Below, piece by piece: positions 19,160 through 38,086 of a stretch of 64,000 nt of DNA. Within the stretch, counting starts at the first letter, position 1. The number at the start of each line of letters is the position of its first letter. The stretch is from Candidatus Omnitrophota bacterium (GTDB lineage Bacteria > Omnitrophota > Gorgyraeia > B26-G9). Where the stretch lies: contig JAHITY010000088.1 in assembly GCA_018817165.1 (NCBI GenBank), positions 2,866 to 66,865 on the forward strand, read 5' to 3'. The position numbers and the translations under genes are program-made. A model generated the notes under the pieces. It did no database searches, had not been told where the DNA came from, and was given only the letters and a program-made list of their open reading frames with translations.

Positions 19160-19739
19160 ATTGCCTGACCGCGGTAATAACTTTGCCAATGATTTGTGAG
19201 CGTTCATTCAAAGCAATTATCGGATAATTTTTATTTGCCGGCTCAAGAAAGAACTTATTCTCGCGGCTTCTTAATGTCTTGACTGTTACTTCGCCATCAA
19301 TCCGGCAAACCACAACATCTTTATTCTGCGCGCAGGGCTGCTTTTTTACCAACACCAGATCATCCGGCATGATCCCCGCGTCAATCATGCTATCGCCATG
19401 CACGCGTAAAAAAAACAATTCATCTTTTTGCGAAAACAATTTATCCACATTAAAATAATCTTCTACGTTTTCTATGGCTAATACCGGAACTCCCGCTGGC
19501 ACAATCCCTAATATCGGAACAGTCAGCATTGCTTTTTCCGTTAATTCAATAGCCCGGGATTTTTTTTCTTCTAAAATAAGATATCCTTTTGTGCATAATG
19601 CTTTTAAATAATCCCTGACTGTTCCGGTTGATGAAAACCCGAATTCCGAAGCAATTTCCCGAATAGTCGGCGGTAATCCATTGCGGATTGTTTTACGAAT
19701 AAACATCAGCACTTCCTGTTGCTTGGTAGTCAAATCCAT
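19152..19739 (-). CDS. lexA: LexA repressor (S24 peptidase)
   Basis: A winged-HTH N-terminus, the cleavage region, Ser in GDSM and Lys in VTVKTL. Confidence 0.9.
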   Translation of the reverse strand: MDLTTKQQEVLMFIRKTIRNGLPPTIREIASEFGFSSTGTVRDYLKALCTKGYLILEEKKSRAIELTEKAMLTVPILGIVPAGVPVLAIENVEDYFNVDKLFSQKDELFFLRVHGDSMIDAGIMPDDLVLVKKQPCAQNKDVVVCRIDGEVTVKTLRSRENKFFLEPANKNYPIIALNERSQIIGKVITAVRQYV

Positions 19740-19821
19740 CGTTTAAGCCTCCCCGATTAATGTTATGTTTTCTATTAAAAATAATAATACCACACATTTG
19801 TGTGGACGTCAAGAAAAAGAC

Positions 19822-19846
19822 ATAAAAAAAACCGTCTTATCGACGG
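19822..19846 (-). terminator. Rho-independent terminator downstream of the carbamate-kinase-like gene
   Basis: A stem ccgtc/gacgg followed on the minus strand by a 9-nt T-run. Confidence 0.5.
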
Positions 19847-19875
19847 AGAAATTAATTAAAGCAAGCAGTTAAAGA

Positions 19876-21219
19876 TTATATTGCTTGGGCAATTATAAGT
19901 TGAAATTCAAGCCCCCCCGCTTGTTGCGGATAAGCAGATATCGGCACTTGACTTAAAGCGATATTTTGCCGCGGCGTTTTCTTTTCATCCAATCCTTGAA
20001 TCGCAATATCGTCAAAAGAGTTCTTGGGACTGCGCTCAATGCGCGTATGCAATCCCCCCTTATCTATCTTTGCTAAATTCTCAGGATTTGTAATAATGAC
20101 CTCTTTTGCTGCGCCTGATTTAATAATACTTATTGCTGCTTGTAATTTAGGCAGCATCGATCCTTCGGTGCCGGCAAATTCGCCGCTATCAATGTATTGT
20201 TGAAGCCGGTCTGCGGTAATATTGGAAATAGGCCGCTGTGTTGAACGCCCATAATCAAGGTAAACACGCTTAACATCCGTTGAGATAATAACACGACTCA
20301 GCGGTTTTTGTTCGGCAGAATATCTGCTTTTAAACAGGCTCTCAGCCAGACAAGCTGTTGCTAAGTCTTTATCAATCACTGCCGGCAAACTGCGCGCTTG
20401 ATTATTCATATCCACCGCAATTCCGCCGCCGCCGACACAAATAACAATCTTTTTAGCTCTTATTGCTTTTTCTATTTTATCTATTTGAACAATCGATTTC
20501 GGCTTTGGGCTGGCAACCAGGACTCGCGGAATTGGCTCTTCTTTCCCGTTAACTGTTTTAAACCGCGCCAAGCCAATAGGCTTTTTCGGGTTAGTAAAAC
20601 CTTCATCCGCAGCATCTACTCTGACATCAGTCATAACAACTTCTATTTGGTTTTCAGAAATACCCAAGCTCATAAGCGCTTCCTTGATATCCGCTCCGAT
20701 CCACTCCTGGGTTTCCTTAACCCCTTGCGCTAGTTTTTGGTTAATGAATTCTTGATCTTTATTTCCATCAAGGAAGCGGCCAAGCCATCTGTCAAGTACT
20801 GCCCCGGCCTCAGGCCCATTGCCATGAGTAATAATTCCCCCCTTTTTTAACTCTGGGAGAATATGCCTTAGTGTTTCTTTTATTCGGTCTTTCTGGATAT
20901 CCGATATTTTCTGCCAATCATCTTTTTTCCAGGGCATTAAGCCCTTTACATCCTCACCTCTCAACAGAGAATTACCACCAATGGAATAAATTTCAGTTGA
21001 TTTGCTTTTCCTAAGGCGCTCTTTAAATGCAGGATATAAAATAGATTGTTTATAAATAGTCTGAAAAGCATTTAGCTGTATTTGGACTTGCGGGGAAAGC
21101 ATTGCAGGAACTCCTTGTTGCTCGTTAAGTAAAAATGTTCCTTGTCCCGCTAACGCGCAATCTGCCATCAGTATTGCCTGGATCAATATTAACGCTATGT
21201 TTTTTAGTATTTTATTCAT
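19876..21219 (-). CDS. Carbamate kinase-like amino-acid-kinase family protein with a predicted signal peptide and N- and C-terminal extensions
   Basis: Carries IGGNSLL and IITHGNGPEAG (carbamate kinase signature). The N-terminus MNKILKNIALILIQAILMADCALAGQ is signal-peptide-like. At 447 aa it is about 130 aa longer than ArcC. Confidence 0.55.
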   Translation of the reverse strand: MNKILKNIALILIQAILMADCALAGQGTFLLNEQQGVPAMLSPQVQIQLNAFQTIYKQSILYPAFKERLRKSKSTEIYSIGGNSLLRGEDVKGLMPWKKDDWQKISDIQKDRIKETLRHILPELKKGGIITHGNGPEAGAVLDRWLGRFLDGNKDQEFINQKLAQGVKETQEWIGADIKEALMSLGISENQIEVVMTDVRVDAADEGFTNPKKPIGLARFKTVNGKEEPIPRVLVASPKPKSIVQIDKIEKAIRAKKIVICVGGGGIAVDMNNQARSLPAVIDKDLATACLAESLFKSRYSAEQKPLSRVIISTDVKRVYLDYGRSTQRPISNITADRLQQYIDSGEFAGTEGSMLPKLQAAISIIKSGAAKEVIITNPENLAKIDKGGLHTRIERSPKNSFDDIAIQGLDEKKTPRQNIALSQVPISAYPQQAGGLEFQLIIAQAI

Positions 21220-21264
21220 AATTTTTCGAGTTTCAAGCCCTTCACACTAAGCATTTCATCTTAT

Positions 21265-22146
21265 TTAAATCGCCTGTTCAATTAATGAAAAAAGTTCATT
21301 AATATCAACACATTGTCCAAAATCACTATATTTCGGCATTGTATTTACCTGTTTATCCTCTTCTTCATAGACTTGAATCAACTGTCTAAAATAATTATCG
21401 GTAAAGTCACGTTCTATTGGAAAATTTTCACCTTGGCCTTCTTGTTCAAGAGATCTTATTGCTTTTTCAGCTATATCCCCTGGGATATCTTGAAAATTTT
21501 CCCAGATAAAAGTAAATACACCTGTCGCCCCTTTTTTACTGCCGACAGGATAGGGTTCTTCAACTAATTTATCAAAAAACATCTTAGTCGTAGGAAACTC
21601 TGCATCGGCTAATTGTCTTGACTGTTCAAAATAGAGATTATTTCTTCTCTGTTCTACATTATAAGCAACTTTTTGCTTTATATGGGCAAGAACCTGCTCT
21701 GCTGATCTTTGCTTTGCCAGCCCCCTACTAATATGTGCGGAAAGATATCTGTAAATCCCCTTTATGCCAAAAGCATCAATATTGTCCACATCATAAAGTA
21801 TTTTTGTTTCAAGGTTTAAATCATGCAAAACATTAGCAGTATCTTCAGGTATCTTTTTATCATGAAATGCTACAGCTTGTTTTATTTTCTCTATTTGCTC
21901 ATCGGTAAAAATATCATTTTCTCTAAAATTCTGTTCTATAAAATCGGCTGCCTGCTGTCCATGCGATTCAGAATCTTCAGCAAATATATCATGCAAATAA
22001 ATTGCTGCCGTTAAAACTTTCCAGTCTACGGCCTCATCTTTATTTAACTTAATTACAAGCATTTCAGCTTTTTCAAGCAAATCAACTGAGTGCTGCATAC
22101 CATGGTGTATATTTTCACTAAAACAGCGTCTAAAAAAATGTTCCAC
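21265..22146 (-). CDS. HD-domain phosphohydrolase family protein
   Basis: Carries H...HD motifs (IHHGMQHS, AIYLHDIF). Confidence 0.55.
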   Translation of the reverse strand: MEHFFRRCFSENIHHGMQHSVDLLEKAEMLVIKLNKDEAVDWKVLTAAIYLHDIFAEDSESHGQQAADFIEQNFRENDIFTDEQIEKIKQAVAFHDKKIPEDTANVLHDLNLETKILYDVDNIDAFGIKGIYRYLSAHISRGLAKQRSAEQVLAHIKQKVAYNVEQRRNNLYFEQSRQLADAEFPTTKMFFDKLVEEPYPVGSKKGATGVFTFIWENFQDIPGDIAEKAIRSLEQEGQGENFPIERDFTDNYFRQLIQVYEEEDKQVNTMPKYSDFGQCVDINELFSLIEQAI

Positions 22147-22188
22147 TCTTACACTCTCCTTGAAAAATATGCTATGTATTTTTTATTA

Positions 22189-23901
22189 CTATATCGATCG
22201 CTCGGCAAAATGTACTTTTGAAGCCCTATTTTTATTTAAAGGTTTAAACAATAACAGCGGATTATCCTCAGGAGTTTGCTTATACTCTAAATTATCAACT
22301 GCATGTAAAAAGTCCTTATTTTCTTTAGCAATTTTTAGAATATATTCCAAATCAATTTTATCTTTTGATAGCAAGCCTTGCATATTCAGCGAATCAACTT
22401 GCTCAGTTTCAAGCAACCGAACATTAATTGCAAGTCTGGCAATAGGATCCCTGAGCATCCTAACCAATGCCTCTTCCAAATAATTACATTTGCTAATACT
22501 TTTCGATAAATTAGGGACAAATTCTTTTGCTTTTTCATACAATAGTATTTGCCCATTTTCTTTGAAAAATGTTTTAATCACCATGTTTTTACGAATATAC
22601 CGCATTGAATCTTTTATTGATTTACTATTAACATTCCCCATGCTAAAAACACTGTCAGGAATATAAATAGACCCTAAAAAATATTCTCCACGCGCACTTA
22701 TAGTTAAAGAGTTGTCCAATCTCACTGAAGAAACACTAGGGGTAAATTTTAGCTTTCTGTAATGTTCATCCTCCCGATAATCTCCAGAGTTTTTCAATAC
22801 AAATTTATCATATAAATCTTGCGGCAGATTTTCCGCATCTCCCATCTGCAATAAGTTTGCATATAAAACTTTCAAAGCTCCTTTTTTTAATTTTATTGTT
22901 CTTAATTTGATTCCACCAGGCAACAAATTTTCTTCATCCTGAACAATATTACCCCCTAAAAACTTTACAAAATCATCAAGTTCGTCATCTTGGCTCGTGA
23001 CATATGTATGTAGATATAAGGTCCCACCAGGAAATAGAGTAAAATACTTATCTATAAATCTTCCGATTTTTTCTAAGGGTATATGCTGTTGATGAACAGT
23101 GTCAACAGAAAGCATAAAAGTCGGAGATTTCTTTTGTTCAGCCGCTGCAAATTCAATCATAAAATCCTCGGCCCAACGTTCATCTATCCACCAACCGTTG
23201 GTAAACATCAAGCCCGTTCTCATTCCCAAACTTTTTGCCATTCTTATAGTTTCCAAAAGCTCATTACGTACCAAAGAAAGTTCACCGCCCATGAAACGAA
23301 TCTCTTCGACTCCCGATGCCTTAGCATCTAAAAGAATTTTTTTTATTTGCGAAATAGAGAGTTTTTCTTTATGCTCCGGATTCACTTTAGCAAGACAAAA
23401 CCTGCACTTTGCATTACATCTTTCAGTAAGACAAAGTGTCAGGTATCGCGGCATTGATATCTTATCATTATTTACTATATTATCTGCAATATAGTCCTCC
23501 ATTAATTTTGCCCAGACCATAAGATACATTTTTCTTCTAAACAAATCCTCCGTATTTGCTGATAAATACCGCAGATAGTTTAAAACAGTATTATCTGCTA
23601 TCCCGAAATCATATATTACTGCCCTCATCTGCATATAAGTTTTATAATAATATTCTTGTTTTCGTCCAAAATCCTTGAACCCAGAGTCCAGAATATCATC
23701 TATCTTATTTTTAAAAGGTGGCGAAAAATATCCCATATAATCAAAAACTGATGGGTCACTAACCTTTTCAGCATTGAATATATACTGTATTTGATTCACA
23801 TCTAATGAAGCTCTAGGTGAAAGCATTGTATCTTGCTGTGCCCAGGCAATATTGCTAAGCAGTAGCATTTGAATGATTAATAATATAATTTTTTTATTCA
23901 T
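22189..23901 (-). CDS. Radical SAM protein with a signal-peptide-like N-terminus and a roughly 150-aa N-terminal domain of unknown function
   Basis: Carries CLTERCNAKCRFC (CxxxCxxC). The N-terminus is MNKKIILLIIQMLLLSNIAWAQQ. No SPASM-type cysteine cluster. Confidence 0.7.
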   Translation of the reverse strand: MNKKIILLIIQMLLLSNIAWAQQDTMLSPRASLDVNQIQYIFNAEKVSDPSVFDYMGYFSPPFKNKIDDILDSGFKDFGRKQEYYYKTYMQMRAVIYDFGIADNTVLNYLRYLSANTEDLFRRKMYLMVWAKLMEDYIADNIVNNDKISMPRYLTLCLTERCNAKCRFCLAKVNPEHKEKLSISQIKKILLDAKASGVEEIRFMGGELSLVRNELLETIRMAKSLGMRTGLMFTNGWWIDERWAEDFMIEFAAAEQKKSPTFMLSVDTVHQQHIPLEKIGRFIDKYFTLFPGGTLYLHTYVTSQDDELDDFVKFLGGNIVQDEENLLPGGIKLRTIKLKKGALKVLYANLLQMGDAENLPQDLYDKFVLKNSGDYREDEHYRKLKFTPSVSSVRLDNSLTISARGEYFLGSIYIPDSVFSMGNVNSKSIKDSMRYIRKNMVIKTFFKENGQILLYEKAKEFVPNLSKSISKCNYLEEALVRMLRDPIARLAINVRLLETEQVDSLNMQGLLSKDKIDLEYILKIAKENKDFLHAVDNLEYKQTPEDNPLLLFKPLNKNRASKVHFAERSI

Positions 23902-24192
23902 TTAATTCCTTATCAAAAAGACATAATACAGAAAAGAGAAAATACTCGCAGATAATTTTTACACTTAATCATTTTGTCTCTTACCTCTTGTTAATCAAAA
24001 TGTTAGGACTAATATATTCCTAATAAAAAAGATTTTAAAGTATACCATATACCCCAGAGATTCGCAAACAAAACCCTATTTTTATTATTAATATAAGTCA
24101 TTTAATTACAATATATTATGCGCTTAATTTTTGAGAATTGATAACTGTTTTTAATCTGAGGTTTGGATTTAGACAAGCTTCAGGGGGAGATA

Positions 24193-25143
24193 TTACTTTA
24201 GGATTCTTAATTCTACAGAAATAAGCTGCTCAAACGCTTCTTTATCTGATGAAAAAGTATTTTTATTATTAGATAAATTAATATCAGCAGAATCTTTCTG
24301 TAATGTTCCACTGCCGGCTAAAAACAATTGTAGCTTTAGGAAATTCTCATAAGTAATATTAAAGGAAAATATTTCCTGGCTTTCTTCAACGCTGTTAAAA
24401 ACTTGGGTGGCATTATATGTGCTGAGAATTTTGCTTATTTGCTGTTTACTAAACAGCTCATCGAAATCTATGATCAGAACTTGTTTTTGTTCATTTCCTT
24501 CAGAAGAAGGTTTTGCTGCTTCAGCTAAGCTTAAAAAGGCTTTATCCTGAACTTTTAATTCCAGCCCAGCCGGAGAATAGGCATCTAAAGCTGCCTCAGA
24601 ATCACCTATTTGCAGAGCTGCCGGCTTACTGCTATCAGCTATTTCCTGTTTAGCCAAGCGGCCAGAAGTTTGGCTAATAATTGATTTTTTTTTGGCAGAT
24701 TGAATCTCCTCGTGGCTTGTTAATTGAGATTCCTGAACATCTCTCTCAGTTAAAATAAAAGCATCTTGTTCATTGATCAGTCCTCTATGCTTGGCTGGCA
24801 GCATATTAAGTTGATTGTTAACCGCGATTACTAAGACTATTGTTGCCACTAAAGCAAAAGCTCTTGCCGAAGAAGTCCTTGGGAAAAAATTCCTTAATCC
24901 CAGAAAAACCTTTTCCCAGAAAGGCAATTCATCAAGCCGCTTATTAACATTATCAATAAAATCCGCTGGAGGATTAATTGCCTTAATCTTATGCATAATG
25001 CTTACCATCTCAGTTATCGACTCAAGTGATTGTGCGCAAGCCGGACAATCTTCAATATGCTTGGTCATAACCATCTGCTGTTTTTTATCTAATTCATTAT
25101 CCAGGAATTTTGAAAGTAGTTTTTTGCAATCCTGACAATTCAT
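24193..25143 (-). CDS. Zinc-finger (ZAS-type) anti-sigma factor, membrane-spanning
   Basis: Carries CQDC...HIEDCPAC at the N-terminus and a central transmembrane segment (AFALVATIVLVIAV). Confidence 0.6.
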   Translation of the reverse strand: MNCQDCKKLLSKFLDNELDKKQQMVMTKHIEDCPACAQSLESITEMVSIMHKIKAINPPADFIDNVNKRLDELPFWEKVFLGLRNFFPRTSSARAFALVATIVLVIAVNNQLNMLPAKHRGLINEQDAFILTERDVQESQLTSHEEIQSAKKKSIISQTSGRLAKQEIADSSKPAALQIGDSEAALDAYSPAGLELKVQDKAFLSLAEAAKPSSEGNEQKQVLIIDFDELFSKQQISKILSTYNATQVFNSVEESQEIFSFNITYENFLKLQLFLAGSGTLQKDSADINLSNNKNTFSSDKEAFEQLISVELRILK

Positions 25144-25144
25144 A

Positions 25145-25780
25145 TCACATCACTTCCTCTAGAATATCAGCTAACAGGCTTCTCGCTCTATGCAAACGAG
25201 ACTTTACTGTTCCAAGGTTAATCAACAAAACCTGAGCTATTTGTTCATAACTTAATTGCTGGATATCGCGTAAAATAATCACTTCGCGAAAATCATATTC
25301 TAATGAATTTAAAGCGCACTGGATCAGCTCATTCAGCTCTTTATCTAAAATGCCTCGATCCGGTGCCGGGCTTAAATCAGGAATCTCTCTTGAGAATGAA
25401 ACATCATCAGAATTTAAATAAGGCTGATCCAATGATAAATTACGCTGATTAGCTTTGGTATTTTTTTTAAGCTTATTGCGACTCAGATTAATCGTTATCC
25501 GGTAAAGCCAGGTAAAAAATCTTGAGTTAAATTTAAATTGCTTGATCGCCTTAAAGCCCCGGACAAATACATCCTGAGCTATTTCTTCAGCCTGATGATA
25601 ATCACCGAATATCCGAAAAGCAATATTAAACACCTGACGATGGTATTTTAAGATCAATTGATTAAATGCCTGCCGATCCCCTTGTTGAACTTTAAGAATT
25701 ATCTCTTTTTCTTGAGCTATTTCTGCAGAGGCATTAAGATCATTGGTATTATTATTTTCTTCAATCACTTTATTAGACAA
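25145..25780 (-). CDS. ECF-subfamily RNA polymerase sigma factor
   Basis: Sigma-70 regions 2 and 4 (FTWLYRITINL...LGTVKSRLHRAR). It is coupled to the anti-sigma gene with a 1-nt spacing. Confidence 0.8.
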   Translation of the reverse strand: MSNKVIEENNNTNDLNASAEIAQEKEIILKVQQGDRQAFNQLILKYHRQVFNIAFRIFGDYHQAEEIAQDVFVRGFKAIKQFKFNSRFFTWLYRITINLSRNKLKKNTKANQRNLSLDQPYLNSDDVSFSREIPDLSPAPDRGILDKELNELIQCALNSLEYDFREVIILRDIQQLSYEQIAQVLLINLGTVKSRLHRARSLLADILEEVM

Positions 25781-25815
25781 TCTTCCCGATCAAAAGTTCA
25801 TTATTTTACAAAAAA

Positions 25816-27257: not shown

Positions 27258-28364
27258 TTAAAAATCTCTATATTCGCGGCGGATAAACAGACCACTTGCT
27301 ACAGGGTCCAAAAACAACTTCAAGAAATAGTTTACATCTTTTACGAATCTTCGCGGAACATAAACAATGTCTTCTGACTCAAGAACCAGATTATCGCTTA
27401 AATCAGCTAATTTTAAAGCCTTATTCAGATCCAATCTTTTAGGATCTGGATTCTGCAGCCCGCCTTTTACTAATATGATACTCGGAGTAACCGCGTCTTC
27501 CGTAAAGCCGCCGGCTAAACCAACTGCTTCTAAAATTGTCTTGCCTTTAGCTAAAGTATATACCCCCGGACTTCTGACCTGGCCAAGCACAATAACTCTA
27601 TTGCCGCCAAAAGTATTTACAGAAACAGACACCTGCGGGTATTTTATGAACTCACGTAAACCCTGAGTTAAAGTATTGCTAAATTCAGTGATTGTTTTAC
27701 CAGAAGCCTCAACTTCACCAACTAAGGCAAATGAAATCAAGCCATCAGGCCGAACTATCACTTGATCATCAAGATCGGGATTTTGCCAAACCTTGACAGA
27801 TAAAACATCACCATTTCCGATTCTATACTTAACTGCACTTTTTTGCTTTATTTCAGGAAGACTTACCGGAATATCAGGCTGATCATTTACCGCAGGCAAA
27901 ACACTATTTTCTTTATCCTTCTTAATATCAGAAATAGCCATTTCGAATTCTTTTTGAGCTTCATTAAACCTGCCCTGATTATACAAAATTAAGCCTCGTT
28001 TATAATGCTGATCATTTTCTTTTTCTGTAGCATTTAAGGCTTTTTTAAATTCCTGCTCTGCAAGCTTAAATTTTCCTTGATTGTAATAGATCAACCCTTT
28101 TTTATAATAATCCTGTTTTTCTGTTTTAGTTTTTTCAATTGATTTTTGAAACTCTTGCTCTGCTTCTTTATATTTTCCCGCTTTATAAAAATCTAAACCT
28201 TTCGCGTAATGATCATCATTGCTCGAAATATTTGAATCGGCATAGCTCAAATCGGATACTTTTAAAAAAAATAAACCGCAAATAGCTAAAAATATCGCTG
28301 AAATAAAAATATTTTTAAATATACTCTTTGCTGTTTTCTGAAATTTATTTTCTTTAATTCGCAT
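27258..28364 (-). CDS. Polysaccharide export protein (Wza/KpsD family, Poly_export+SLBB) with N-terminal TPR-like repeats
   Basis: An N-terminal transmembrane or signal segment, three KGL.YYxQGKFxEAEQEF repeats, then YRIGNGDVLSVKVWQNPDL...VRPDGLISFALVGEVEASGKT. Confidence 0.7.
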   Translation of the reverse strand: MRIKENKFQKTAKSIFKNIFISAIFLAICGLFFLKVSDLSYADSNISSNDDHYAKGLDFYKAGKYKEAEQEFQKSIEKTKTEKQDYYKKGLIYYNQGKFKLAEQEFKKALNATEKENDQHYKRGLILYNQGRFNEAQKEFEMAISDIKKDKENSVLPAVNDQPDIPVSLPEIKQKSAVKYRIGNGDVLSVKVWQNPDLDDQVIVRPDGLISFALVGEVEASGKTITEFSNTLTQGLREFIKYPQVSVSVNTFGGNRVIVLGQVRSPGVYTLAKGKTILEAVGLAGGFTEDAVTPSIILVKGGLQNPDPKRLDLNKALKLADLSDNLVLESEDIVYVPRRFVKDVNYFLKLFLDPVASGLFIRREYRDF

Positions 28365-28384: not shown

Positions 28385-31300
28385 TTAAAATCCCTGAATT
28401 TTCCCTCTTAAACTAATTATTTCTTCAGCCATAACAACTTTTTCATCTTCACTTTTTGCTAGGCTATTCTGCACATCTTTAAGTTTTTGTTCAAACTCCT
28501 TTATTGCAACATTCTGCTCTTTCATCTGATCAAAGAGTTTTTGATATTTTTCCATGACTTGCTGTTTTTGAGTAGCTAACTCTTCCATTTGGGCAAGAAC
28601 TTCCTGGGTGGAAGTCGATTTACCTTTAGTTTGATTCTCTAATTCAGTGATTTTTGCTTGAGCCGCAGATAACTGCGCCATTATCTCTTGTCTCTGTAAA
28701 TTTGAAGCTGAAATTTCCGACTGCAATTCAGTCTGAACTCCCTCTTTTTCTTTTAACAAAACTTCCAGGGACTTTAATTTCTCATTCAAAGACTGTAAAT
28801 CAGGGCTATTTTGCTTTAATCTATTCATCTCAGATAACAGAACATTGTTCTTATTCTCAAATTCTTTTTCTGCCTTAGACAGCTCAACAGTTTTAGCATC
28901 AGCAGCAACAAGCTTATTTTTAATATTGTTTAAGTTATCTCGCAAACCCGCTAAATCCTGGTTTTTCTGGTTTAATTCATCCTCTGTTATTTTTAGCTTA
29001 GTTTTCAGGCTATCAAACTCTAAACGTAATGCATTATTTTCATTCAACTGATTCGGCTGTAAATTTTGATTTTTCTTAATATTGAAAATTTCTTGATTTA
29101 AAGCCGCAAGCTCTTTTTCTTGTTTTGCCAACAGTTTTTCTTGCTCCTTACTTTTGGCTTCTAGACTACTTTTCTCTTTACCCAAAAGTTGTTTGTCTGT
29201 CTCCAAAACATCCACTTTAGCAGTTATTGACTTTTCCTTTTGTCCTAGTTCGCTCAGTTGTTTCTGCAGCGCGGTTACTTGATTATTAAGCTCCGCGTTA
29301 GACTGGGTCAGTTCCTTAGTTTTTTCCTGCTTAGTACTAGATTCATTTTGCAGAGTAAGAATTGCACTGTTTTTATTTTTCAATTCAGATTCTATAGCTT
29401 GAATGTCCTGGATTAGCTTCTCATTACTTTTCCGCAAAGAATCATTTTCCGCCACAGATTCTTTATTAGAATTTTTTCTTTTTTCCAAGTCACCATTTTT
29501 TTTAAGCAGTAGCGTCAATTCCCTATCTTTCGCTAAAAGCTGTTCCTGCTGATCTTTATTTGCTGATTCTAATTCATTTCTTTCTTTAGCTATCCGTTTT
29601 ATATCTGTTTCCAAAACATCAAAATTCTTTAAACTTGCCTTCTTATCCAGCTCTAGGACAGTTAGCTGATTATTTAACTCATCTAACTTGTTCTTAAGTT
29701 CGTCATTTAACTTTGCCAGCTGATTACTTTGATCAATCGAGCCCTTAGCTTCTTTTTCCTTTAAAACAATGTCTTTCTCCAATAAACCTACTTTGTTTTC
29801 AATTTTAGCTAATTTTTCATTTTGACCTTTTAATTCTTTATTTTCTGTCTCTAGCTTTTTATTATTATCATTCAAAGCCGTATTAGCTTTTGTTATATCC
29901 TTATAATCAGCACTCAAACTTAAAACTTTCGCTTCAAGATCCGCGCGCTGTTCCTTTATTTTTGCTAACTCATTATTAAGCTTATCATAAGCCGTCTGGC
30001 TATTATTTAAATCTGTTTTCTCCCTTAAGCTAATCGTCTCATTTTCTTTTAAAAGATTTTTGTTTTCATTTTCGAGTAATGAAAAATTCTCATTCAAAGC
30101 AATTATTTGAGCTTCAAGCTCTTTTTTATCTTTTTGAACTTGTTCGAATTGACTGGTAATATCCTGATTCTTTTTATTCAAATTTTCAAGCAAACCATTT
30201 AATTCATTGATCTTTTTTTCTGCTTGCACAGCTGAAAGTGTCTTTTTAGCTAAAACCCCATTTTCTTCTTCCAGCTTTTTTTTATCTATTTCAAGCTGCT
30301 TATTCTTTTCTTTTGCGGCATCTTCTTCTTTTAAAAGCAAAGCAATATCTTTTTCAATGACCTCAAGTTGCTGCTCTTTTTTTCGAATATCTTCATCTTT
30401 CAGCTTCAAAGTCTCCTGCGCCTGTTTCGATTCAGCTTGCACTTTGCTATTTTTTTCAATTTCCAGGTTATAATCAGCTAAGATCTTGTCTTTTTCTTTG
30501 GCAGCGAAATTTTTTTCTTCCTCGAGCTTTTTCGCGTCATTTTTTAAAACCTGATTTTCTTCAATTAAATCCTTATTTTTTTTATTCAAGCCAGACAACT
30601 CAGATTCAATTAATTGAGTTTTCTGAACTTTTTCATCTAAAGCGGCTTGGATGCCTTTATTTTGTTCCTCAAGCTTAACCATCAGCTTCCCGTTTTTTTC
30701 CAACAATTCTTTTTCCGCTAAAATCGCTTCTTTTTCTTTTAATATTTTAGCGTTTTGGCTGTTTAATTCATTAATTTCTTTATCTTTTTTATCGATCATT
30801 TGCTGCTGTTTTACCTGCTCAGAATTTTCCGCGATATTAATCGGCTTAGCAACTGATTCCTCTTGCTGTTTTTCTAGAGCCATAATGATTTGCTCAAGCA
30901 GTTTGTTTTCAAAAACGATTTTTTCTTGCTCATTTGCCTTAGCAGCAACAGCTTCTTCCGCTTTTTTAGCCTCAGCAATTAGTAACTCATATTGCTTATT
31001 TTGCGCTAATGTTTTTTCATTAACTAATTTAAGCTCTTCCTGTAATTTGTTTTTTTCCTGTTTAAGGAGTTCATACTGAGCAAGCTGCTCACGAATCGAC
31101 AATGCCGGTTTAGCTGCCCCTGCTTCCTCATCCTTTTTGGCTCCAAATAGTCCCCCTAAAAAAGTAGTCTCAGTAGCGGCAGGCTTTATAATCACATCTT
31201 TCTTTTGATAAAGGTCAATCAACTCTTCTTTTACAGCAGCCAATTCTTCGGACAATGATTTTTTTTCAACCTTAATATCTTCGATCAATACCTGATTTTG

Positions 31301-31741
31301 CTTTAAGTCTTCATCTTTATTCATTAATAAAAGTTCTAATTGCTTTATCTTTTTGTTAAGCCCATCTGTCGGCTGAGGTTTCTTTTTTAATCTCGCATTA
31401 ACCTTTTCAAACTTATCTTCAACTTCTTTTTTTTCTTTTTTAATTCTTTTAATTTCTTGTTTCAATAATTCATTTTCTTCCGAAAGTTCAGTTGGATTAC
31501 TTAATGATTTATCTATTCCCGGACTTTTCTCAACAATATTATCTGCCGAACGCAAAGCCTGTCTTGCTTTTTCAAACTCAGCCTGAGCCTCCTTATATTT
31601 ACCCTGTTTAAACAATTCCTGAGCACGGATATAATGCTTATCATATTCCTGCGAATACGCTTCACTCAAGCTACAAAACAAAAGCCCAAAAATTAAAATT
31701 GAAACATTAAATATAACGTTTATTTTTTTAAAGGCATACAT
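28385..31741 (-). CDS. Giant (1118 aa) low-complexity coiled-coil protein with an N-terminal signal or transmembrane segment and one TPR-like unit
   Basis: K/E/L/N/Q-rich heptad-like sequence throughout. The N-terminus is MYAFKKINVIFNVSILIFGLLFCSLSEA. Confidence 0.55.
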   Translation of the reverse strand: MYAFKKINVIFNVSILIFGLLFCSLSEAYSQEYDKHYIRAQELFKQGKYKEAQAEFEKARQALRSADNIVEKSPGIDKSLSNPTELSEENELLKQEIKRIKKEKKEVEDKFEKVNARLKKKPQPTDGLNKKIKQLELLLMNKDEDLKQNQVLIEDIKVEKKSLSEELAAVKEELIDLYQKKDVIIKPAATETTFLGGLFGAKKDEEAGAAKPALSIREQLAQYELLKQEKNKLQEELKLVNEKTLAQNKQYELLIAEAKKAEEAVAAKANEQEKIVFENKLLEQIIMALEKQQEESVAKPINIAENSEQVKQQQMIDKKDKEINELNSQNAKILKEKEAILAEKELLEKNGKLMVKLEEQNKGIQAALDEKVQKTQLIESELSGLNKKNKDLIEENQVLKNDAKKLEEEKNFAAKEKDKILADYNLEIEKNSKVQAESKQAQETLKLKDEDIRKKEQQLEVIEKDIALLLKEEDAAKEKNKQLEIDKKKLEEENGVLAKKTLSAVQAEKKINELNGLLENLNKKNQDITSQFEQVQKDKKELEAQIIALNENFSLLENENKNLLKENETISLREKTDLNNSQTAYDKLNNELAKIKEQRADLEAKVLSLSADYKDITKANTALNDNNKKLETENKELKGQNEKLAKIENKVGLLEKDIVLKEKEAKGSIDQSNQLAKLNDELKNKLDELNNQLTVLELDKKASLKNFDVLETDIKRIAKERNELESANKDQQEQLLAKDRELTLLLKKNGDLEKRKNSNKESVAENDSLRKSNEKLIQDIQAIESELKNKNSAILTLQNESSTKQEKTKELTQSNAELNNQVTALQKQLSELGQKEKSITAKVDVLETDKQLLGKEKSSLEAKSKEQEKLLAKQEKELAALNQEIFNIKKNQNLQPNQLNENNALRLEFDSLKTKLKITEDELNQKNQDLAGLRDNLNNIKNKLVAADAKTVELSKAEKEFENKNNVLLSEMNRLKQNSPDLQSLNEKLKSLEVLLKEKEGVQTELQSEISASNLQRQEIMAQLSAAQAKITELENQTKGKSTSTQEVLAQMEELATQKQQVMEKYQKLFDQMKEQNVAIKEFEQKLKDVQNSLAKSEDEKVVMAEEIISLRGKIQGF

Positions 31742-33457: not shown

Positions 33458-34609
33458 TTATTTTAGGTTGCCGTCATTATAAACATCAAGAATATATACA
33501 GAAAAATTTTTACTCAAATCAATTTGCTTTGCCTGAAGCAATTTTTGCCCATGCGCGTCATACGTAACTTTAATAATCGGCCTGAGCGGCATTTTTTGAT
33601 TTTGACCAATAATTTCAGCAATTTCTTTAGTATTTAATTTAACCACACTCATTAAAGGATATATCCCGATCTCATCAATCAAAGTCTTGAGGAACTTGCT
33701 TTCAAATTTAGCTTTATCGCGCAAAAGCTCTTTTATTACCTTAAGATATCCTAGCTTTTTTCTATAAGGCCTTGAATGCATCATTGCTTCATAAACATCA
33801 GCCATTCCTATTAGTCTGGCATACTCACATATTTCTTTATCTTTAAGACCATAGGGATAGCCTGATCCGTCAATCCGTTCATGTCCCTGGTGAATAACAT
33901 CGAAAATTTCAAAATTCAAATCCTGCGCTATTTTTTTTAAAATATCCTTACCGATAATCGGATGCTTTTTCACTTCCAAATAATCATTATCGCTAAACCG
34001 CGCGGGACGACTAATCAGATTATCAAAATTCATAATACCAATATCATGAACCAAGGCTGCTAATCCAATTTGCTTAAGCCGCGTATTGTCATAATTTAAG
34101 GCCATTGCTAACCGTAAGCAAAGTATGCAGACATTTACTGAATTCTGATAAATATATCCTTTTTCGAAAGAATATTCCGCGAAAAACAATCTCATCAGCT
34201 GATTAGCATCTGCTGAAAGCAAAGCGATAAATTGATCCACAACATAATCGGCAACAATAAATGACCCGTTTTGAGCGTTATCCAGCGGATTCATTATTCC
34301 TTGAACAAAAGCAATTGCCTTGGCATAAGCAGCAATTGCCTGTTCGCTTTCAACACTGACTACATTAACATCACTCTTATAAATTGTATGATATTTTTCT
34401 TTCTCCGCGGCAAGCTGCGGCTGCTGTTCTATTTCCGTTTCTAAAAGATCATTCGCCGTTTCTTCAGGTAATATTTCAGGCTTTTTTTCTGGCATTTGCG
34501 AAGGGGATAAAGGCTGCTTAAAAGCAGACGGCTCATTTACTTGAGCCTTGGATTCTTTAATCTGCTTATTTTTTTTTGCCTTTTTTAAAATATCGGATAT
34601 TTTTAGCAT
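33458..34609 (-). CDS. HD-GYP domain c-di-GMP phosphodiesterase (stand-alone, no receiver)
   Basis: Carries HDIG and HERIDGSGYP. Confidence 0.75.
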   Translation of the reverse strand: MLKISDILKKAKKNKQIKESKAQVNEPSAFKQPLSPSQMPEKKPEILPEETANDLLETEIEQQPQLAAEKEKYHTIYKSDVNVVSVESEQAIAAYAKAIAFVQGIMNPLDNAQNGSFIVADYVVDQFIALLSADANQLMRLFFAEYSFEKGYIYQNSVNVCILCLRLAMALNYDNTRLKQIGLAALVHDIGIMNFDNLISRPARFSDNDYLEVKKHPIIGKDILKKIAQDLNFEIFDVIHQGHERIDGSGYPYGLKDKEICEYARLIGMADVYEAMMHSRPYRKKLGYLKVIKELLRDKAKFESKFLKTLIDEIGIYPLMSVVKLNTKEIAEIIGQNQKMPLRPIIKVTYDAHGQKLLQAKQIDLSKNFSVYILDVYNDGNLK

Positions 34610-35290: not shown

Positions 35291-36265
35291 TTATTTAGAA
35301 CTAGATTTTCCTTCCCAAGTCTGCCATGTAAGAATATACTTTTTAACCCAATCCACGTCCTGATCTTCCTTCTTGGTTAACATTAAAAACTTCTGAAATC
35401 TATCTATCGCTTTTGCTCTATCCTCAAACTGCTCAGCATAAATAAGCCCTAAATTAAAATAAGCCTGCGGATCTTCCGGATTCAGTTCAATCGCCTTTTC
35501 AAACTCAGGAATTGCTCGGGTATATTCCTTTTTTTCGGAATAAAAAACCCCCAAGTTATAATGCATCAATGCTGTACGTTTTAACAAAATTTTATTTTCG
35601 CGAGCGATCTCCGCGTATTCTTTAGGCAAACGATTAATTTTATTTTCTAGCTTCTTATTTGTCGTAACCGATTTCTTATATTTACTCTTAACTTCTTTTA
35701 CTTGATTCCTTAAAACATCTGCCGTGGCTTCGGCTTTAGCGATTTGATCAGATGCCGAGTCGACTTCTTTTTGCATTTTCTTAAGATTATTTTCTGAGCG
35801 GGATATCTCTTTTTCCTGCTCTTTTATTTTTTTATTCAAATCATCAACAATGATATACCCGGCTTTTGATTTAGAAAGAGTCTTTCTCATTTCATCTCTT
35901 TCTGACTGAACTTGAAACAAATCCGCCTGTAAATTGTCTAATTTACTAACCAAATGATCATTAACTGATTGGAGTCTTTTGTTTGCGCTTATATTTGTTT
36001 CTTTTTCCAGTTCCCACTGCGCCCGTTCTTGTTCGACTAAACTTAATTGCTGTTTTGCCTGAGTTATTTCATTTTTATACTGCAATAAAATTTTCATCTG
36101 CGCAAGCAGATTTTCCCGGTCCTTAATAACAGCATCATACTCTTTTTTTAATTTACTAAAATCTTTATTGTCCAAAGATTCAACCTGAGCCTGCCCCAAA
36201 GCCATTGAAGGTAAAAACAACATCACGCAAAAAAACACAAGCTTAATTGATTTCATTTTATTCAT
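35291..36265 (-). CDS. Secreted coiled-coil protein with C-terminal TPR repeats (PilF/MshN-like candidate secretin partner), paralog 2
   Basis: A signal peptide, a coiled coil, then a C-terminal TPR block (HYNLGVFYSEKKEYTRAIPEFEKAIELNPEDPQAYFNLGLIY). Confidence 0.55.
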   Translation of the reverse strand: MNKMKSIKLVFFCVMLFLPSMALGQAQVESLDNKDFSKLKKEYDAVIKDRENLLAQMKILLQYKNEITQAKQQLSLVEQERAQWELEKETNISANKRLQSVNDHLVSKLDNLQADLFQVQSERDEMRKTLSKSKAGYIIVDDLNKKIKEQEKEISRSENNLKKMQKEVDSASDQIAKAEATADVLRNQVKEVKSKYKKSVTTNKKLENKINRLPKEYAEIARENKILLKRTALMHYNLGVFYSEKKEYTRAIPEFEKAIELNPEDPQAYFNLGLIYAEQFEDRAKAIDRFQKFLMLTKKEDQDVDWVKKYILTWQTWEGKSSSK

Positions 36266-38075
36266 CCTTTAAAGGTTTTATGGTTGGATAATATTCCTCA
36301 ATATTCTTATATTCAGGATATTCCTGATAAAGCTTTGGTTTTATTTCATAATTTTTTTCAAACTCAGTTAAATCAGATTCCGTAGTCATTGAATTATAGT
36401 CCTTATATCCTTTGCCTTGCTCAACTCCAAAATCTCTATTATTACCTGTATCGATTTTATCGCCGTCAATAATATGGGCAGTAACCATGATCAGCAGTTC
36501 ACTGCGGGTAGTCCCTTTGCTCCCGGATTTAAACAACATACCCAGAATTGGAATTTTGCCTAAAAACGGAACTTCTTGTGATGTATCTGTTTTTTCTTCC
36601 TTACGCAAACCACCAACAGCGACAGTTGCTCCATCTTTTATCATTACAGTTGTTTCAGCGGTTGAAGTATCGACAATCGGAATCCGATTGTTCTGCGCTG
36701 TCAATAATGTACCGATTACACTGCTTAAATCCGGCTTTATTTTTAAGGTAACATAACCTTCATCATTTATTGTCGGGGTAATATGCAACTGCAACCCCAC
36801 ATCTAAAAAAGTCACTTCTTCAGAAACAGTTGTGGTTGTCTGACCAGCAGTTGTGGTTGTCGTAATATAAGCCTGTCTTTCGCCGACATGAATACGCGCT
36901 TCCTGATTATTTGTCACTGCCAGCTTAGGATTTGACAAAATCTTAACTTCTCCCAATGTCTGTAAATATTTCAGCATTACATCATAATCATGATTGCCAA
37001 CTACTCCAATATGCATTTCGCTTGTCCCCACACTGGGAACACTTGACGCGTAATCAGAAGTCGTTCCGCTAAAAGGATATGATCCTATATTACCAGTATC
37101 AGTTAAAACCTCCTGCCGAGAACGCCAGGCCGCTGTGGTACTGTTTACAGAGGCCAAAGGGGTTGAGCCCAGATAAGTAGTATTACCATCTTTTTGCGAT
37201 AATTCAAACAGACCTTCCCACGCGACTCCTTGACTTAAAGCATCAGTCAGCTTTATTTGAATTATTGTAGACTCAATCAAAACTTCTCTTGTTTTCTGAT
37301 CAAGCTTAGCAATAATCGCCTGAATATCTTTCATTCTTTCCGGAAGGGTTTGTACAACCAGCTGATTTGTCCGTTCATCGGCTTTTATCGAGCCGACTTT
37401 TTTCATATCCAGCTGTGTTTTTAACTGCTTGGCAATATCCCCGGCATTCGCGTATTGCAAATTAAAAACCTGTACCGTACTCTTATGCTCAAGCAATCCT
37501 ATTGTTTCTTCCACTTCCGCTATTTTCTCTGGGGTATCCAGGATTAAAATAGTCCCGGAATCAGCCTCCACCAATACTTTGCCAATTGAACTCTTTATTG
37601 AATCAATTATTGTATATGCTTGCTCAGGAATAACATATTTTAAATGAAAAACTTTTACCTGGCGAATATCATCAAAACCTTTTCCATAACGCTGCGTATA
37701 TTCTTTTTCAGTCATTACATTGTATATTGAACCTATTTTTTCATAAGCTAAACTATTTGATCTTATAACAATCTCAAAAATATCTTCTACTGCCGCATTG
37801 TTTATCATCAAAGTAATCCGACCTGAGACATCTTTTGTCGGCACAATATTTAAATTCGCTTTTTGAGCAATATATTTAAGCGCGTCTTTAACTTCAATAT
37901 CACGCAAATCCAAAGAAATCAACTCTTTAGCTACCATGAGATTAGAAACAGAAGAACCATTCACTGTTGATAATGAAACATATTCACCATCAGCGAAGAC
38001 TGTTTCTACAGCACATAATATTGTAACTGCGAAACACCAAATAGTCAAAAATATAATAAAAATAAATTGCTTCAT
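36258..38075 (-). CDS. Secretin (GspD/PilQ/MshL family), paralog 2. The likely start is M14 of the track ORF.
   Basis: Secretin_N repeats and a secretin C-domain (LSNPKLAVTNNQEARIHVG, IPIVDTSTAETTVMIKDGATVAVGGL, VPFLGKIPILGMLF). Confidence 0.85.
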   Translation of the reverse strand: MKQFIFIIFLTIWCFAVTILCAVETVFADGEYVSLSTVNGSSVSNLMVAKELISLDLRDIEVKDALKYIAQKANLNIVPTKDVSGRITLMINNAAVEDIFEIVIRSNSLAYEKIGSIYNVMTEKEYTQRYGKGFDDIRQVKVFHLKYVIPEQAYTIIDSIKSSIGKVLVEADSGTILILDTPEKIAEVEETIGLLEHKSTVQVFNLQYANAGDIAKQLKTQLDMKKVGSIKADERTNQLVVQTLPERMKDIQAIIAKLDQKTREVLIESTIIQIKLTDALSQGVAWEGLFELSQKDGNTTYLGSTPLASVNSTTAAWRSRQEVLTDTGNIGSYPFSGTTSDYASSVPSVGTSEMHIGVVGNHDYDVMLKYLQTLGEVKILSNPKLAVTNNQEARIHVGERQAYITTTTTAGQTTTTVSEEVTFLDVGLQLHITPTINDEGYVTLKIKPDLSSVIGTLLTAQNNRIPIVDTSTAETTVMIKDGATVAVGGLRKEEKTDTSQEVPFLGKIPILGMLFKSGSKGTTRSELLIMVTAHIIDGDKIDTGNNRDFGVEQGKGYKDYNSMTTESDLTEFEKNYEIKPKLYQEYPEYKNIEEYYPTIKPLKDE

Positions 38076-38086
38076 TTGTATAATAA

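Follow-up and report, generated by a model that had tools for sequence, protein, structure and literature searches.

A variable set of enzymes with predicted export leaders and shared terminal peptides at a fixed site between pgi and lexA in a small clade of Omnitrophota

Why do a radical S-adenosylmethionine (SAM) enzyme and a carbamate-kinase-like protein begin with leader peptides resembling those of exported proteins? In textbooks, the cytoplasm is the place of radical SAM enzymes as well as of SAM methyltransferases and ATP-dependent kinases. The question is raised by a locus within a stretch of 64,000 nucleotides from Candidatus Omnitrophota bacterium (assembly GCA_018817165.1, contig JAHITY010000088.1, positions 2,866 to 66,865; this whole stretch is referred to as the window). 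Five genes encode, in the order of transcription, an extracytoplasmic function (ECF) sigma factor, an anti-sigma factor, a radical SAM enzyme (rSAM), an HD-domain protein (HD) and a carbamate-kinase-like protein (kinase). A sequence-only reading of the window had suggested that the last three of these genes could encode an envelope-associated pathway under ECF control. All five open reading frames (ORFs) are present at the coordinates of Table 1, all on the minus strand and with real domains; overall, its observation was partly confirmed and its interpretation partly supported. The evidence base of this study is a handful of metagenomic contigs from close relatives. Our preferred explanation, with a probability of about 45%, is that the last three genes form a cassette in which the equivalent of an exported multi-enzyme protein of Omnitrophota is split into small genes, with products that would be co-targeted by two terminal labels.

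The giant proteins of Omnitrophota are the nearest described phenomenon, known in descriptive terms only. In this phylum, which has been proposed to include predators and host-dependent nanobacteria, the domains of long proteins include those of methyltransferases, HD, radical SAM and kinases; a signal peptide or transmembrane (TM) segment is carried by 94% of these proteins (10.64898/2026.06.07.730766; also 10.1101/2023.11.21.568195). The cassette resembles these 'Archaeovorin'-type giants in its phylum and in an overlapping domain repertoire behind a signal peptide. One leader-bearing giant of 4647 aa, P0132, holds, by Pfam, the rSAM family of the window together with three methyltransferases of the MTS type and a second radical SAM domain; an HD-like H..HD stretch upstream of its rSAM was read by eye and confirmed by no profile search. 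In contrast to the giants, the window has separate genes for 293-570 aa, one conserved slot, an own promoter and terminal motifs. The slot, the N-terminal motif and the C-terminal tail described below are without mention in the bioRxiv papers 10.1101/2023.11.21.568195 and 10.64898/2026.06.07.730766.

The contigs carrying HD homologues (loci numbered with L) share a common backbone consisting of a Wza-like gene, pgi, in some loci the sigma and anti-sigma genes, a slot, lexA, a small ORF, dinB and a cupin gene. The cargo types of the slot include rSAM, HD, carbamate-kinase-like proteins, MTS-type methyltransferases, a GlpX-like fructose bisphosphatase (FBPase) and unknowns, in a different combination for each locus (Table 1). 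The trio rSAM-HD-kinase was found in no other genome; the kinase is present in only one metagenome-assembled genome (MAG), and the partners of HD vary from genome to genome. As judged from these sequences, a small Omnitrophota clade keeps a variable enzyme set at one fixed site, with contents that differ per genome and packaging that stays constant. In L004 (1724..5066) and L010 (6796..8864), a leader-bearing HD gene is located between lexA with its 95-aa ORF and dinB, within an apparent SOS operon, indicating that slot proteins can occupy either side of lexA.

The first constant element of the packaging is the leader. Thirteen leaders were judged by the rules for n-, h- and c-regions and compared with the leaders of the secretins encoded in the window. 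The rSAM and kinase leaders quoted in the sequence-only reading read as given there, with the n/h/c build and the AxA-type site of exported proteins. By this rule-based reading the cassette leaders are of the Sec type with a signal peptidase I (SPase-I) site, showing an n-region of +2 to +5, an h-region of 11-13 residues that often includes one Gln (LIIQxLL) and is followed by neutral or acidic residues, and a polar c-region with small-x-small at its end (AWA, ALA, VLA, GLA, LFA, AFA, CLA). The secretin leaders have the same build, as in MSKKQIAVSLIAVFILINFKSGWA followed by QD for the secretin at 40303..42114. Of the seven full-length members of the rSAM family, six have a leader. The leader of rSAM is kept in P0002, P0133, P0134, P0135, P0136 and the giant P0132. 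The NCBI gene call for the kinase (430 aa, from M18, 21168..21219) drops the leader, but its likeness to the other leaders supports the upstream ATG. HD has none, as was noted before, and starts with GTG behind the ribosome-binding site AAGGAG. Two observations had been named in advance as speaking against a common export pathway: the lack of synteny of the trio, which is indeed what was found, and cytoplasm-facing membrane anchors, whereas the leaders look cleaved and exported.

The same N-termini could also be uncleaved anchors or assembly helices of a metabolon on the membrane's cytoplasmic face, to which the leaderless HD would dock via its tail, the chemistry taking place in the cytoplasm of the producer. 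We regard this as rather unlikely. Such a metabolon would account for the Fe-S, SAM and ATP needs of the enzymes and for the leaderless HDs that still bear the tail, and 46% of the long proteins of Omnitrophota were read as TM-anchored with cytoplasmic domains (bioRxiv 10.64898/2026.06.07.730766). The leaders, however, show the N-in/C-out cleavable pattern of the window secretins, and an N-out/C-in anchor would violate the positive-inside rule in every member.

The second constant element is a motif, mLSPxΦxΦxxxxFQxI[Y/F], that sits 5-25 residues past the predicted cut on most slot proteins. The profile of this N-motif from the rSAM family matched that of the other proteins with an hhalign probability of 89.6% (E = 1.9e-6), and the N-module of the kinase matched that of the L001 methyltransferase by BLASTP (43% identity over 47 aa, E = 2e-10), even though the two enzymes are unrelated and the genomes are different. 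The idea that similar N-termini mean common targeting is strengthened in so far as the leader plus the mLSP..FQxIY motif is found on non-homologous enzymes in several genomes; the destination is inferred only.

The third element, missed in the sequence-only reading, is a C-terminal tail, ΦΦ(E/D)x(A/S)I-COOH, predicted as a short amphipathic helix after a disordered linker. Among the 299 ORFs of at least 50 aa in the window, only the three cassette ORFs carry this tail. In eight loci of the clade, 15 of the 100 ORFs of at least 150 aa ended in the loose form of the tail, 7 of these in the strict form, all being located within or beside the slot, compared with 3 of 740 ORFs (loose) and none (strict) in 73 unrelated control loci. 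Further examples are ..AIIEQAI (L001 methyltransferase, P0129), ..LVEQSI, ..LVEIAI, ..VIEEAI and ..LIDRSI. The larger multi-domain relatives have both motifs at or near the termini, with the exception of one internal tail match (L012_1486, position 1128) and one match 34 residues from the C-terminus of a 4027-aa protein of L011. A role of the tail and the N-motif as cleavage junctions of a polyprotein was rejected, the motifs lying at or near the termini with that one internal tail-like match. No meaningful direct or inverted repeats were detected in 19600..24400, and recent DNA duplication or recombination was rejected as the source of the shared ends; with no repeat at the DNA level, the likeness of the termini is held at the protein level.

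For the three tails and three N-modules, no match was obtained at E<=10 to the sorting signals of NCBIfam (PEP-CTERM, GlyGly-CTERM, LPXTG, T9SS CTD and others), and the tails are without a TM segment, unlike most curated sorting signals. Known terminal address peptides include the peroxisomal targeting signals PTS1 and PTS2, hitch-hiking on twin-arginine translocation (Tat) substrates, the targeting peptides of encapsulins and microcompartments, and the C-terminal sensing between DegS and RseA; in these systems, short N- or C-terminal peptides separated by linkers route, or report on, unrelated folded enzymes. By analogy with PTS1 and PDZ ligands, the cassette tail would need a free C-terminus. 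It differs from all of these peptides in having no sequence likeness to them, and neither a shell nor a partner of the Pex, Tat (no RR) or PDZ kind was identified. That the leader plus mLSP..FQxIY and the tail are two halves of an undescribed sorting or assembly code, which exports modular, exchangeable, cofactor-dependent enzymes, including radical SAM enzymes and ATP-yielding kinases, outside the cytoplasm or into a host or prey, is a possibility that we consider real, although less likely than not.

The enzymes behind these termini were examined for the chemistry they may perform. The intact CxxxCxxC motif reported for rSAM is indeed there, with C162, C166 and C169 invariant in all 8 members of the family. 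The eight-sequence alignment also showed an invariant GGE (G205 G206 E207), further invariant motifs of the core and no other conserved cysteine, and rSAM belongs to PF04055. The N-terminal region of about 150 aa, previously described as an unknown domain, is not one domain but is composed of the leader, the disordered N-motif and a four-helix domain (61-141) conserved in the family. In the AlphaFold2 (AF2) model of rSAM (predicted local distance difference test, pLDDT, 72.9; predicted TM-score, pTM, 0.74), a disordered segment (16-56) is followed by the four-helix domain (helices 61-78, 82-99, 103-115 and 120-141, pLDDT 81-90), a partial TIM barrel and a helical C-domain, and the core superposes on radical SAM structures. 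An exhaustive HMMER search of 1.84 billion representatives recovered only 8 members of this very rare family at E<=1e-30, and a word search of 5.8 billion proteins only 2. A metagenome scan for rSAM loci added a single contig, L090 (= P0133), where a transposase was present and the neighbours were uninformative.

The functional tie between rSAM and HD, previously only suggested, is supported by gene fusions. P0135 (856 aa) is composed of leader, N-motif, rSAM, the HD family and tail, and the C-terminal end of P0002, the closest relative of rSAM, is a remnant of the N-terminus of HD (HHGLQH..). Since the two are fused in relatives, the sequences show that rSAM and HD derive as halves from a single ancestral enzyme, which was split by fission in the window. 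In other members of the family, the guesses of a P-loop kinase in P0136 and of a transglutaminase-like domain in P0134 were unsupported by Pfam or PDB sequence searches.

Homologues of HD are few, forming nine clusters in the search of 5.8 billion proteins. Residues H15 G16 H19 D22, H52 D53, H62, H95 D96 and D119 D121 D124 are invariant in nine relatives, including the H..HD..D metal-binding set of the HD superfamily. The JGI/Logan gene call for HD (277 aa, from M17, 22099..22146) cuts off the invariant HHG motif and apparently starts too late. The closest solved relatives by sequence are the uncharacterised hydrolases YedJ (3GW7) and lp_2664 (2PJQ), at E of about 1e-7 with a profile; the H..HD..D core is common to both, whereas the HD family of the window adds invariant His and Asp residues, a 100-aa C-terminal extension and the tail, and the match is remote. 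The family also occurs inside large proteins with leaders that are encoded in MAGs of Omnitrophota, Elusimicrobiota and Aminicenantes, where it is fused to, or located beside, PPDK_N, iPGM, enolase and His_Phos_1 domains, as in P0125 (His_Phos_1 plus HD). One such neighbour, a 1058-aa protein of L012 (5945..9121), is apparently a circularly permuted enolase (Enolase_C, 385-679, before Enolase_N, 744-941) with an N-terminal MSPQ..IQNAF, no obvious leader and the tail ..EYLIDRSI; its gene directly follows that for a 1486-aa leader-bearing protein with PPDK_N and HD.

The kinase is longer than ArcC, as noted before; the leader and N-module add about 75 aa at the N-terminus, and the disordered linker and tail add about 55 aa at the C-terminus. 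With its GGN loop at residues 81-83, the carbamate-kinase core starts near residue 75. Across the kinase and 31 carbamate kinases, 50 columns are invariant (including G81 G82 N83, T131-P136, K213, G263-G266, D283 K284 D285 and S354 M355 P357 K358), and all catalytic and binding motifs are kept. The kinase matched ArcC of Enterococcus faecalis (1B7B) over chain residues 24-298 (E = 5e-30), sharing 35-41% identity in the core with GGN, HGNGP, NPxKPIG, GGGG, IDKD and MLPK kept, and its AF2 model (pLDDT 78.8) is confident in the core. It differs from ArcC in the leader plus N-module, the linker plus tail, a score below the arcC equivalog cutoff (Table 1) and the lack of arginine deiminase pathway genes beside it. 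No relative closer than ordinary cytoplasmic carbamate kinases (35-41% identity) was found. On sequence grounds the kinase is an intact carbamate-kinase core wrapped in two terminal labels, and within the cassette it is an add-on to rSAM-HD.

The structure of rSAM raises the possibility of protein or peptide modification, in which an EpeE/YydG-like rSAM and the MTS-type methyltransferases would modify peptides or proteins, perhaps the terminal motifs or giant surface proteins, with HD and the kinase as accessories. The closest solved fold to rSAM is EpeE/YydG (PDB 8AI1-8AI6; E = 7.6e-9, target-normalised TM-score 0.67-0.69, about 375 columns, 13-14% identity), with a CxxxCxxC plus GGE core in common, followed by SkfB, MoaA, anSME and BlsE, and YydG is third among the NCBIfam matches; methyltransferases like MTS, PrmA and PrmC with the (D/N/A)PP[YF] motif co-occur with rSAM or are fused to it. 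On the other hand, none of the features defining TIGR04078 (300 bits; the C-terminal cysteines of a second [4Fe-4S] cluster plus a catalytic Cys; a precursor gene) was found in rSAM, which scored 48.7 bits with the YydG model against the cutoff of 300. The window rSAM is without both the auxiliary Fe-S cysteines and a yydF-like precursor gene, and it is extended by the four-helix N-domain and by a leader of the Sec type; its N-domain is all-helical with no domain like a recognition element for ribosomally synthesized and post-translationally modified peptides (RiPPs); and no precursor gene is conserved, the only small ORF being not conserved. We regard peptide modification as quite improbable as the function of the cassette.

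A factory for nucleotide analogues with antiviral or antibiotic function, in which an rSAM resembling viperin or OxsB would cooperate with an HD phosphohydrolase and a kinase after the pattern of prokaryotic viperin-kinase systems, is suggested by the PADLOC pVip models, which matched rSAM at E = 1.7e-16 to 8.9e-8, by viperin_w_prok as the top NCBIfam match and by the nucleotide-flavoured combination of HD, rSAM and kinase. The pair OxsA (HD) and OxsB (rSAM) of oxetanocin synthesis is a further precedent for HD plus rSAM. The viperin matches, however, cover only the generic SAM core (residues 156-284; 183 structural columns), and viperin_w_prok scored 54.9 bits (residues 158-284) against a cutoff of 180, as all NCBIfam matches of rSAM are far below their cutoffs. 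The likeness to pVip with kinase is limited to an rSAM beside a kinase and weak model matches; the kinase is of the wrong type, a carbamate kinase and not a nucleotide kinase, and the leaders do not fit a cytoplasmic defence. This explanation is highly improbable, and a defence system was rejected, the PADLOC pVip matches being at core level only. No described system matches the locus, in agreement with the sequence-only reading: no curated family or defence system claims the rSAM, HD or kinase proteins.

The question of control was approached through the spacing and the promoters. The spacing is tight between the sigma and anti-sigma genes (1 nt) and within the cassette (42 bp and 45 bp), but 291 bp separate the anti-sigma and rSAM genes; the five genes are not one tight operon. 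The terminator, said to be strong, exists but is modest. A promoter scan detected a sigma-70-type promoter with extended -10 inside the 291-bp gap, and in the intergenic alignment of the window, L003, L005, L007 and L010 this promoter plus the TTTAAAATCTTTT block is the sole conserved island. The same promoter, read directly, precedes the first cassette gene of L001, in which no ECF pair is present between pgi and the cassette. It is kept in six related loci including the window, and occurs once within the window. The slot contents vary while the promoter is kept, so that the promoter is better conserved than the gene driven by it. The rSAM, HD and kinase genes are predicted from the sequence to form an own transcription unit with a conserved housekeeping-type promoter and the terminator at 19846..19832.

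The ECF pair itself is clear, with sigma regions 2 and 4 and a zf-HC2 gene only 1 nt away. Orthologues of the sigma factor are found at the matching position in L003 and L005, but it is absent from L001 and none was seen in L007; orthologues of the anti-sigma factor are found in L003, L005, L007 and L010. In L003, L005 and the window, the pair is located directly upstream of the cassette and is co-directional with it, and no terminator was found by the terminator scan after the anti-sigma gene, making read-through from the sigma operon into the cassette possible. These arrangements would fit one ECF-controlled operon for an envelope-associated small-molecule or modification pathway, in which the anti-sigma factor senses envelope stress, the sigma factor turns on expression of rSAM, HD and kinase, and the three enzymes act sequentially on one substrate. 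We consider this improbable: six loci have the sigma-70-type promoter in the interval between anti-sigma gene and cassette, one of them, L001, without an ECF pair; the candidate ECF promoter GAAC-N16-GTCT was not found upstream of the cassette; and the contents vary per genome with the kinase being unique, arguing against a fixed three-step pathway. The candidate is weak when taken alone, with 3 matches in the window against 2.6 expected by chance, and it is partly conserved in L003. The claim of ECF control over the cassette is thus unsupported, given the conserved sigma-70-type promoter in the gap, and the ECF pair is inferred to be a conserved neighbour and at most a putative regulator.

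Within the 5' leader of the cassette, a 19-codon ORF, MIKCKNYLRVFSLFCIMSF, has its start aligned with that of the first cassette gene of L003, and is not conserved in other loci. It is probably the 5'-end relic of a lost or replaced first cassette gene and not a precursor peptide; a RiPP precursor in the 291-bp gap was rejected, the small ORFs there being not conserved.

A possible outer-membrane exit was found in the window. Two paralogous secretin genes (36258..38114 and 40303..42114; Secretin, Secretin_N, STN) are located 12-18 kb upstream of the cassette and point in the same direction, interleaved with genes for TPR proteins and an AAA_22 (ExeA-like) ATPase (35291..36265, 38087..40300, 42794..43654); the annotated part of the window showed neither an E/F ATPase gene nor platform genes. 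In L091 (1..8955), which belongs to an Omnitrophota MAG at greater distance (GCA_042576765.1), the gene for an HD homologue with leader is divergent from a type II secretion system (T2SS) operon that encodes T2SS E, T2SS F, an N_methyl pseudopilin and a response regulator. The window secretins may be an outer-membrane export conduit. Secretins or T2SS genes nearby would also serve a polymorphic effector cassette, in which interchangeable enzymes are secreted by Sec and then by a secretin or T2SS-like machine into or onto a host or prey, which supplies Fe-S, SAM and ATP, and there rewire or drain carbamoyl phosphate, sugar phosphates and nucleotides. In agreement with this model, the promoter and leader are constant and the cargo variable, the cargo consists of phosphotransfer enzymes of the cytoplasmic type (carbamate kinase, GlpX, enolase, iPGM, PPDK_N, His_Phos_1), the relic at 23972..23913 indicates a lost first gene, and predatory or host-dependent lifestyles and exported enzyme-bearing giants have been proposed for the phylum (10.64898/2026.06.07.730766, 10.1101/2023.11.21.568195). 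Yet there are no toxin/immunity pairs, recombination repeats or mobile-element genes, HD of the window has no leader, and no delivery apparatus is linked specifically to the slot. Like the metabolon, we judge it rather unlikely.

According to the preferred explanation, that of a split cassette of exported and co-targeted enzymes, the leader would carry the cassette proteins across the inner membrane, and the N-motif together with the free C-terminal tail would be address or docking peptides, gathering different enzymes at one destination or complex outside the cytoplasm of the producer, either in the periplasm, on the cell surface or in a target cell. There, the substrate of rSAM-HD might be phosphorylated, or might be a peptide or protein, and the kinase would interconvert carbamoyl phosphate plus ADP and ATP for its co-located partners. 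Phosphoryl-transfer chemistry is also pointed to by the PPDK-, enolase- and iPGM-like domains in relatives.

Several observations count against this explanation. First, neither the Fe-S cluster, SAM and reductant required by rSAM nor the nucleotides required by the kinase are expected in the periplasm. To our knowledge, Tat is the only route for folded Fe-S proteins, and the leaders, with KK instead of RR and very hydrophobic h-regions, argue against Tat: no RR is present (n-regions MNKK, MNKILKN, MKIIRK), and the Kyte-Doolittle (KD) value of the h-region is about 3. For the same reasons, Tat export with hitch-hiking of HD was rejected. Second, HD of the window and of several orthologues has the tail without a leader and cannot follow its partner through Sec, implying that the tail works in the cytoplasm, that HDs take another route, or that the proteins are not where the leaders indicate. 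Third, leader cleavage was deduced from the n/h/c rules. Fourth, the kinase is confined to that one MAG, and the slot position is shared among a few loci of close relatives, which could partly reflect shared ancestry and not function. Finally, AF2 gave no confident contact between the N-module and the tail of the kinase; an intramolecular contact of these two was rejected, the tail being placed without confidence.

Table 1. Features of the cassette locus in the window and contents of the slot in related loci
Feature	Coordinates	Strand	Remarks
ECF sigma	25145..25780	-	Pfam Sigma70_r2 + r4_2; TIGR02937 105 bits vs cutoff 42.9
Anti-sigma	24193..25143	-	zf-HC2 PF13490 35.9 bits vs 22.2; one predicted TM, ~200-aa extracytoplasmic part
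Candidate ECF promoter GAAC-N16-GTCT	25775..25799	-	just upstream of sigma gene; sole match near locus
Cassette promoter	24027..24067	-	-35 TTGCGA 24067..24062, N17 spacer, extended -10 TGgTATACT ending 24039, then TTTAAAATCTTTT block
19-codon ORF MIKCKNYLRVFSLFCIMSF	23913..23972	-	good ribosome-binding site, in cassette 5' leader
rSAM enzyme, 570 aa	22189..23901	-	PF04055 residues 158-272 only; 43.3 bits vs cutoff 29.5; ends in three stop codons
rSAM leader MNKKIILLIIQMLLLSNIAWA	23839..23901	-	Sec/SPase-I type; predicted cut between AWA and QQ; n(+2), 11-residue h-region KD 3.2, polar c-region with AxA
rSAM N-motif TMLSPRASLDVNQIQYIFNA	23770..23829	-	common to kinase, methyltransferase and other cassette proteins
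rSAM four-helix N-domain, aa 61-141	23479..23721	-	invariant Y85 Y86 Y89 R93 W130 K132 E135 D136
CxxxCxxC motif (C162, C166, C169)	23395..23418	-	invariant in family alignment
rSAM tail VHFAERSI	22192..22215	-	degenerate, fits loose pattern; relatives end ..TEQSI, ..VEQSI, ..VEIAI, ..IDQAI
HD-domain protein, 293 aa, GTG start	21265..22146	-	PF01966 22.9 bits vs cutoff 22 (borderline); conserved core of slot
HD tail LFSLIEQAI-COOH	21268..21294	-	strict pattern; orthologues end ..LIEMAI, ..LIEISI, ..LIERYI, ..IIEQAI
Carbamate-kinase-like kinase, 447 aa	19876..21219	-	PF00696; arcC TIGR00746 159 bits vs cutoff 358
Kinase leader MNKILKNIALILIQAILMADCALA	21148..21219	-	predicted cut between ALA and GQ
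Kinase N-module AMLSPQVQIQLNAFQTIYKQSILYPAFKERLRK	21004..21105	-	AF2 helices 43-58, 61-70, pLDDT ~75
Kinase tail FQLIIAQAI-COOH	19879..19905	-	behind ~45-aa disordered linker; AF2: 404-435 disordered, 436-446 helix, low pLDDT
Intrinsic terminator ending cassette	19824..19846	-	GC-rich 5-bp stem 19846..19832, T8 tail, -7.6 kcal/mol, z = -1.9
Slot, window			rSAM, HD, kinase
Slot, L003			239-aa protein, 506-aa X-HD fusion, 901-aa GlpX-like FBPase/TPR protein
Slot, L005			471-aa unknown, HD
Slot, L007			HD alone
Slot, L001			MTS-type methyltransferase, rSAM
Slot, L010 and L004			648-aa, methyltransferase-containing 767-aa and 412-aa proteins before lexA; HD after lexA

On the downstream side of the slot, the lexA promoter TTGACG-N17-TATTAT has in its spacer a perfect palindrome, CCACACAAATGTGTGG, at 19790..19805, which occurs once in the window and which L003, L005, L007 and further loci have at the corresponding position upstream of lexA; the terminator scan had listed it as a hairpin. 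This palindrome is a candidate LexA operator of this Omnitrophota clade. SOS control of the cassette was rejected, as the candidate operator CCACAC-N4-GTGTGG is confined to the lexA promoter, which lies downstream of the terminator of the cassette. On the upstream side, a Wza-like polysaccharide export gene (Poly_export, SLBB; with an unusual N-terminal TPR array) at 27258..28364 is adjoined by a gene (28385..31741) for a 1118-aa leader-bearing coiled-coil protein with a weak match to the crescentin rod, and both are kept upstream of pgi in L005 and L007. The gene at 33458..34609, flanked by the coiled-coil gene and the secretin cluster, is for a second HD protein (HD_5/HD-GYP-like, 383 aa) that is unrelated to the first.

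The cassette provides a tractable handle on the giant proteins of Omnitrophota: its products of 300-570 residues can be expressed and assayed, unlike giants of 10-100 kilo-residues. If the terminal motifs are a sorting code, the set of exported enzymes could be listed from sequence, and the receptor or secretion machine could be searched for. If this family of radical SAM enzymes, methyltransferases and kinases is truly exported, it would challenge the current view of where such chemistry can occur, the more so with a second, C-terminal label.

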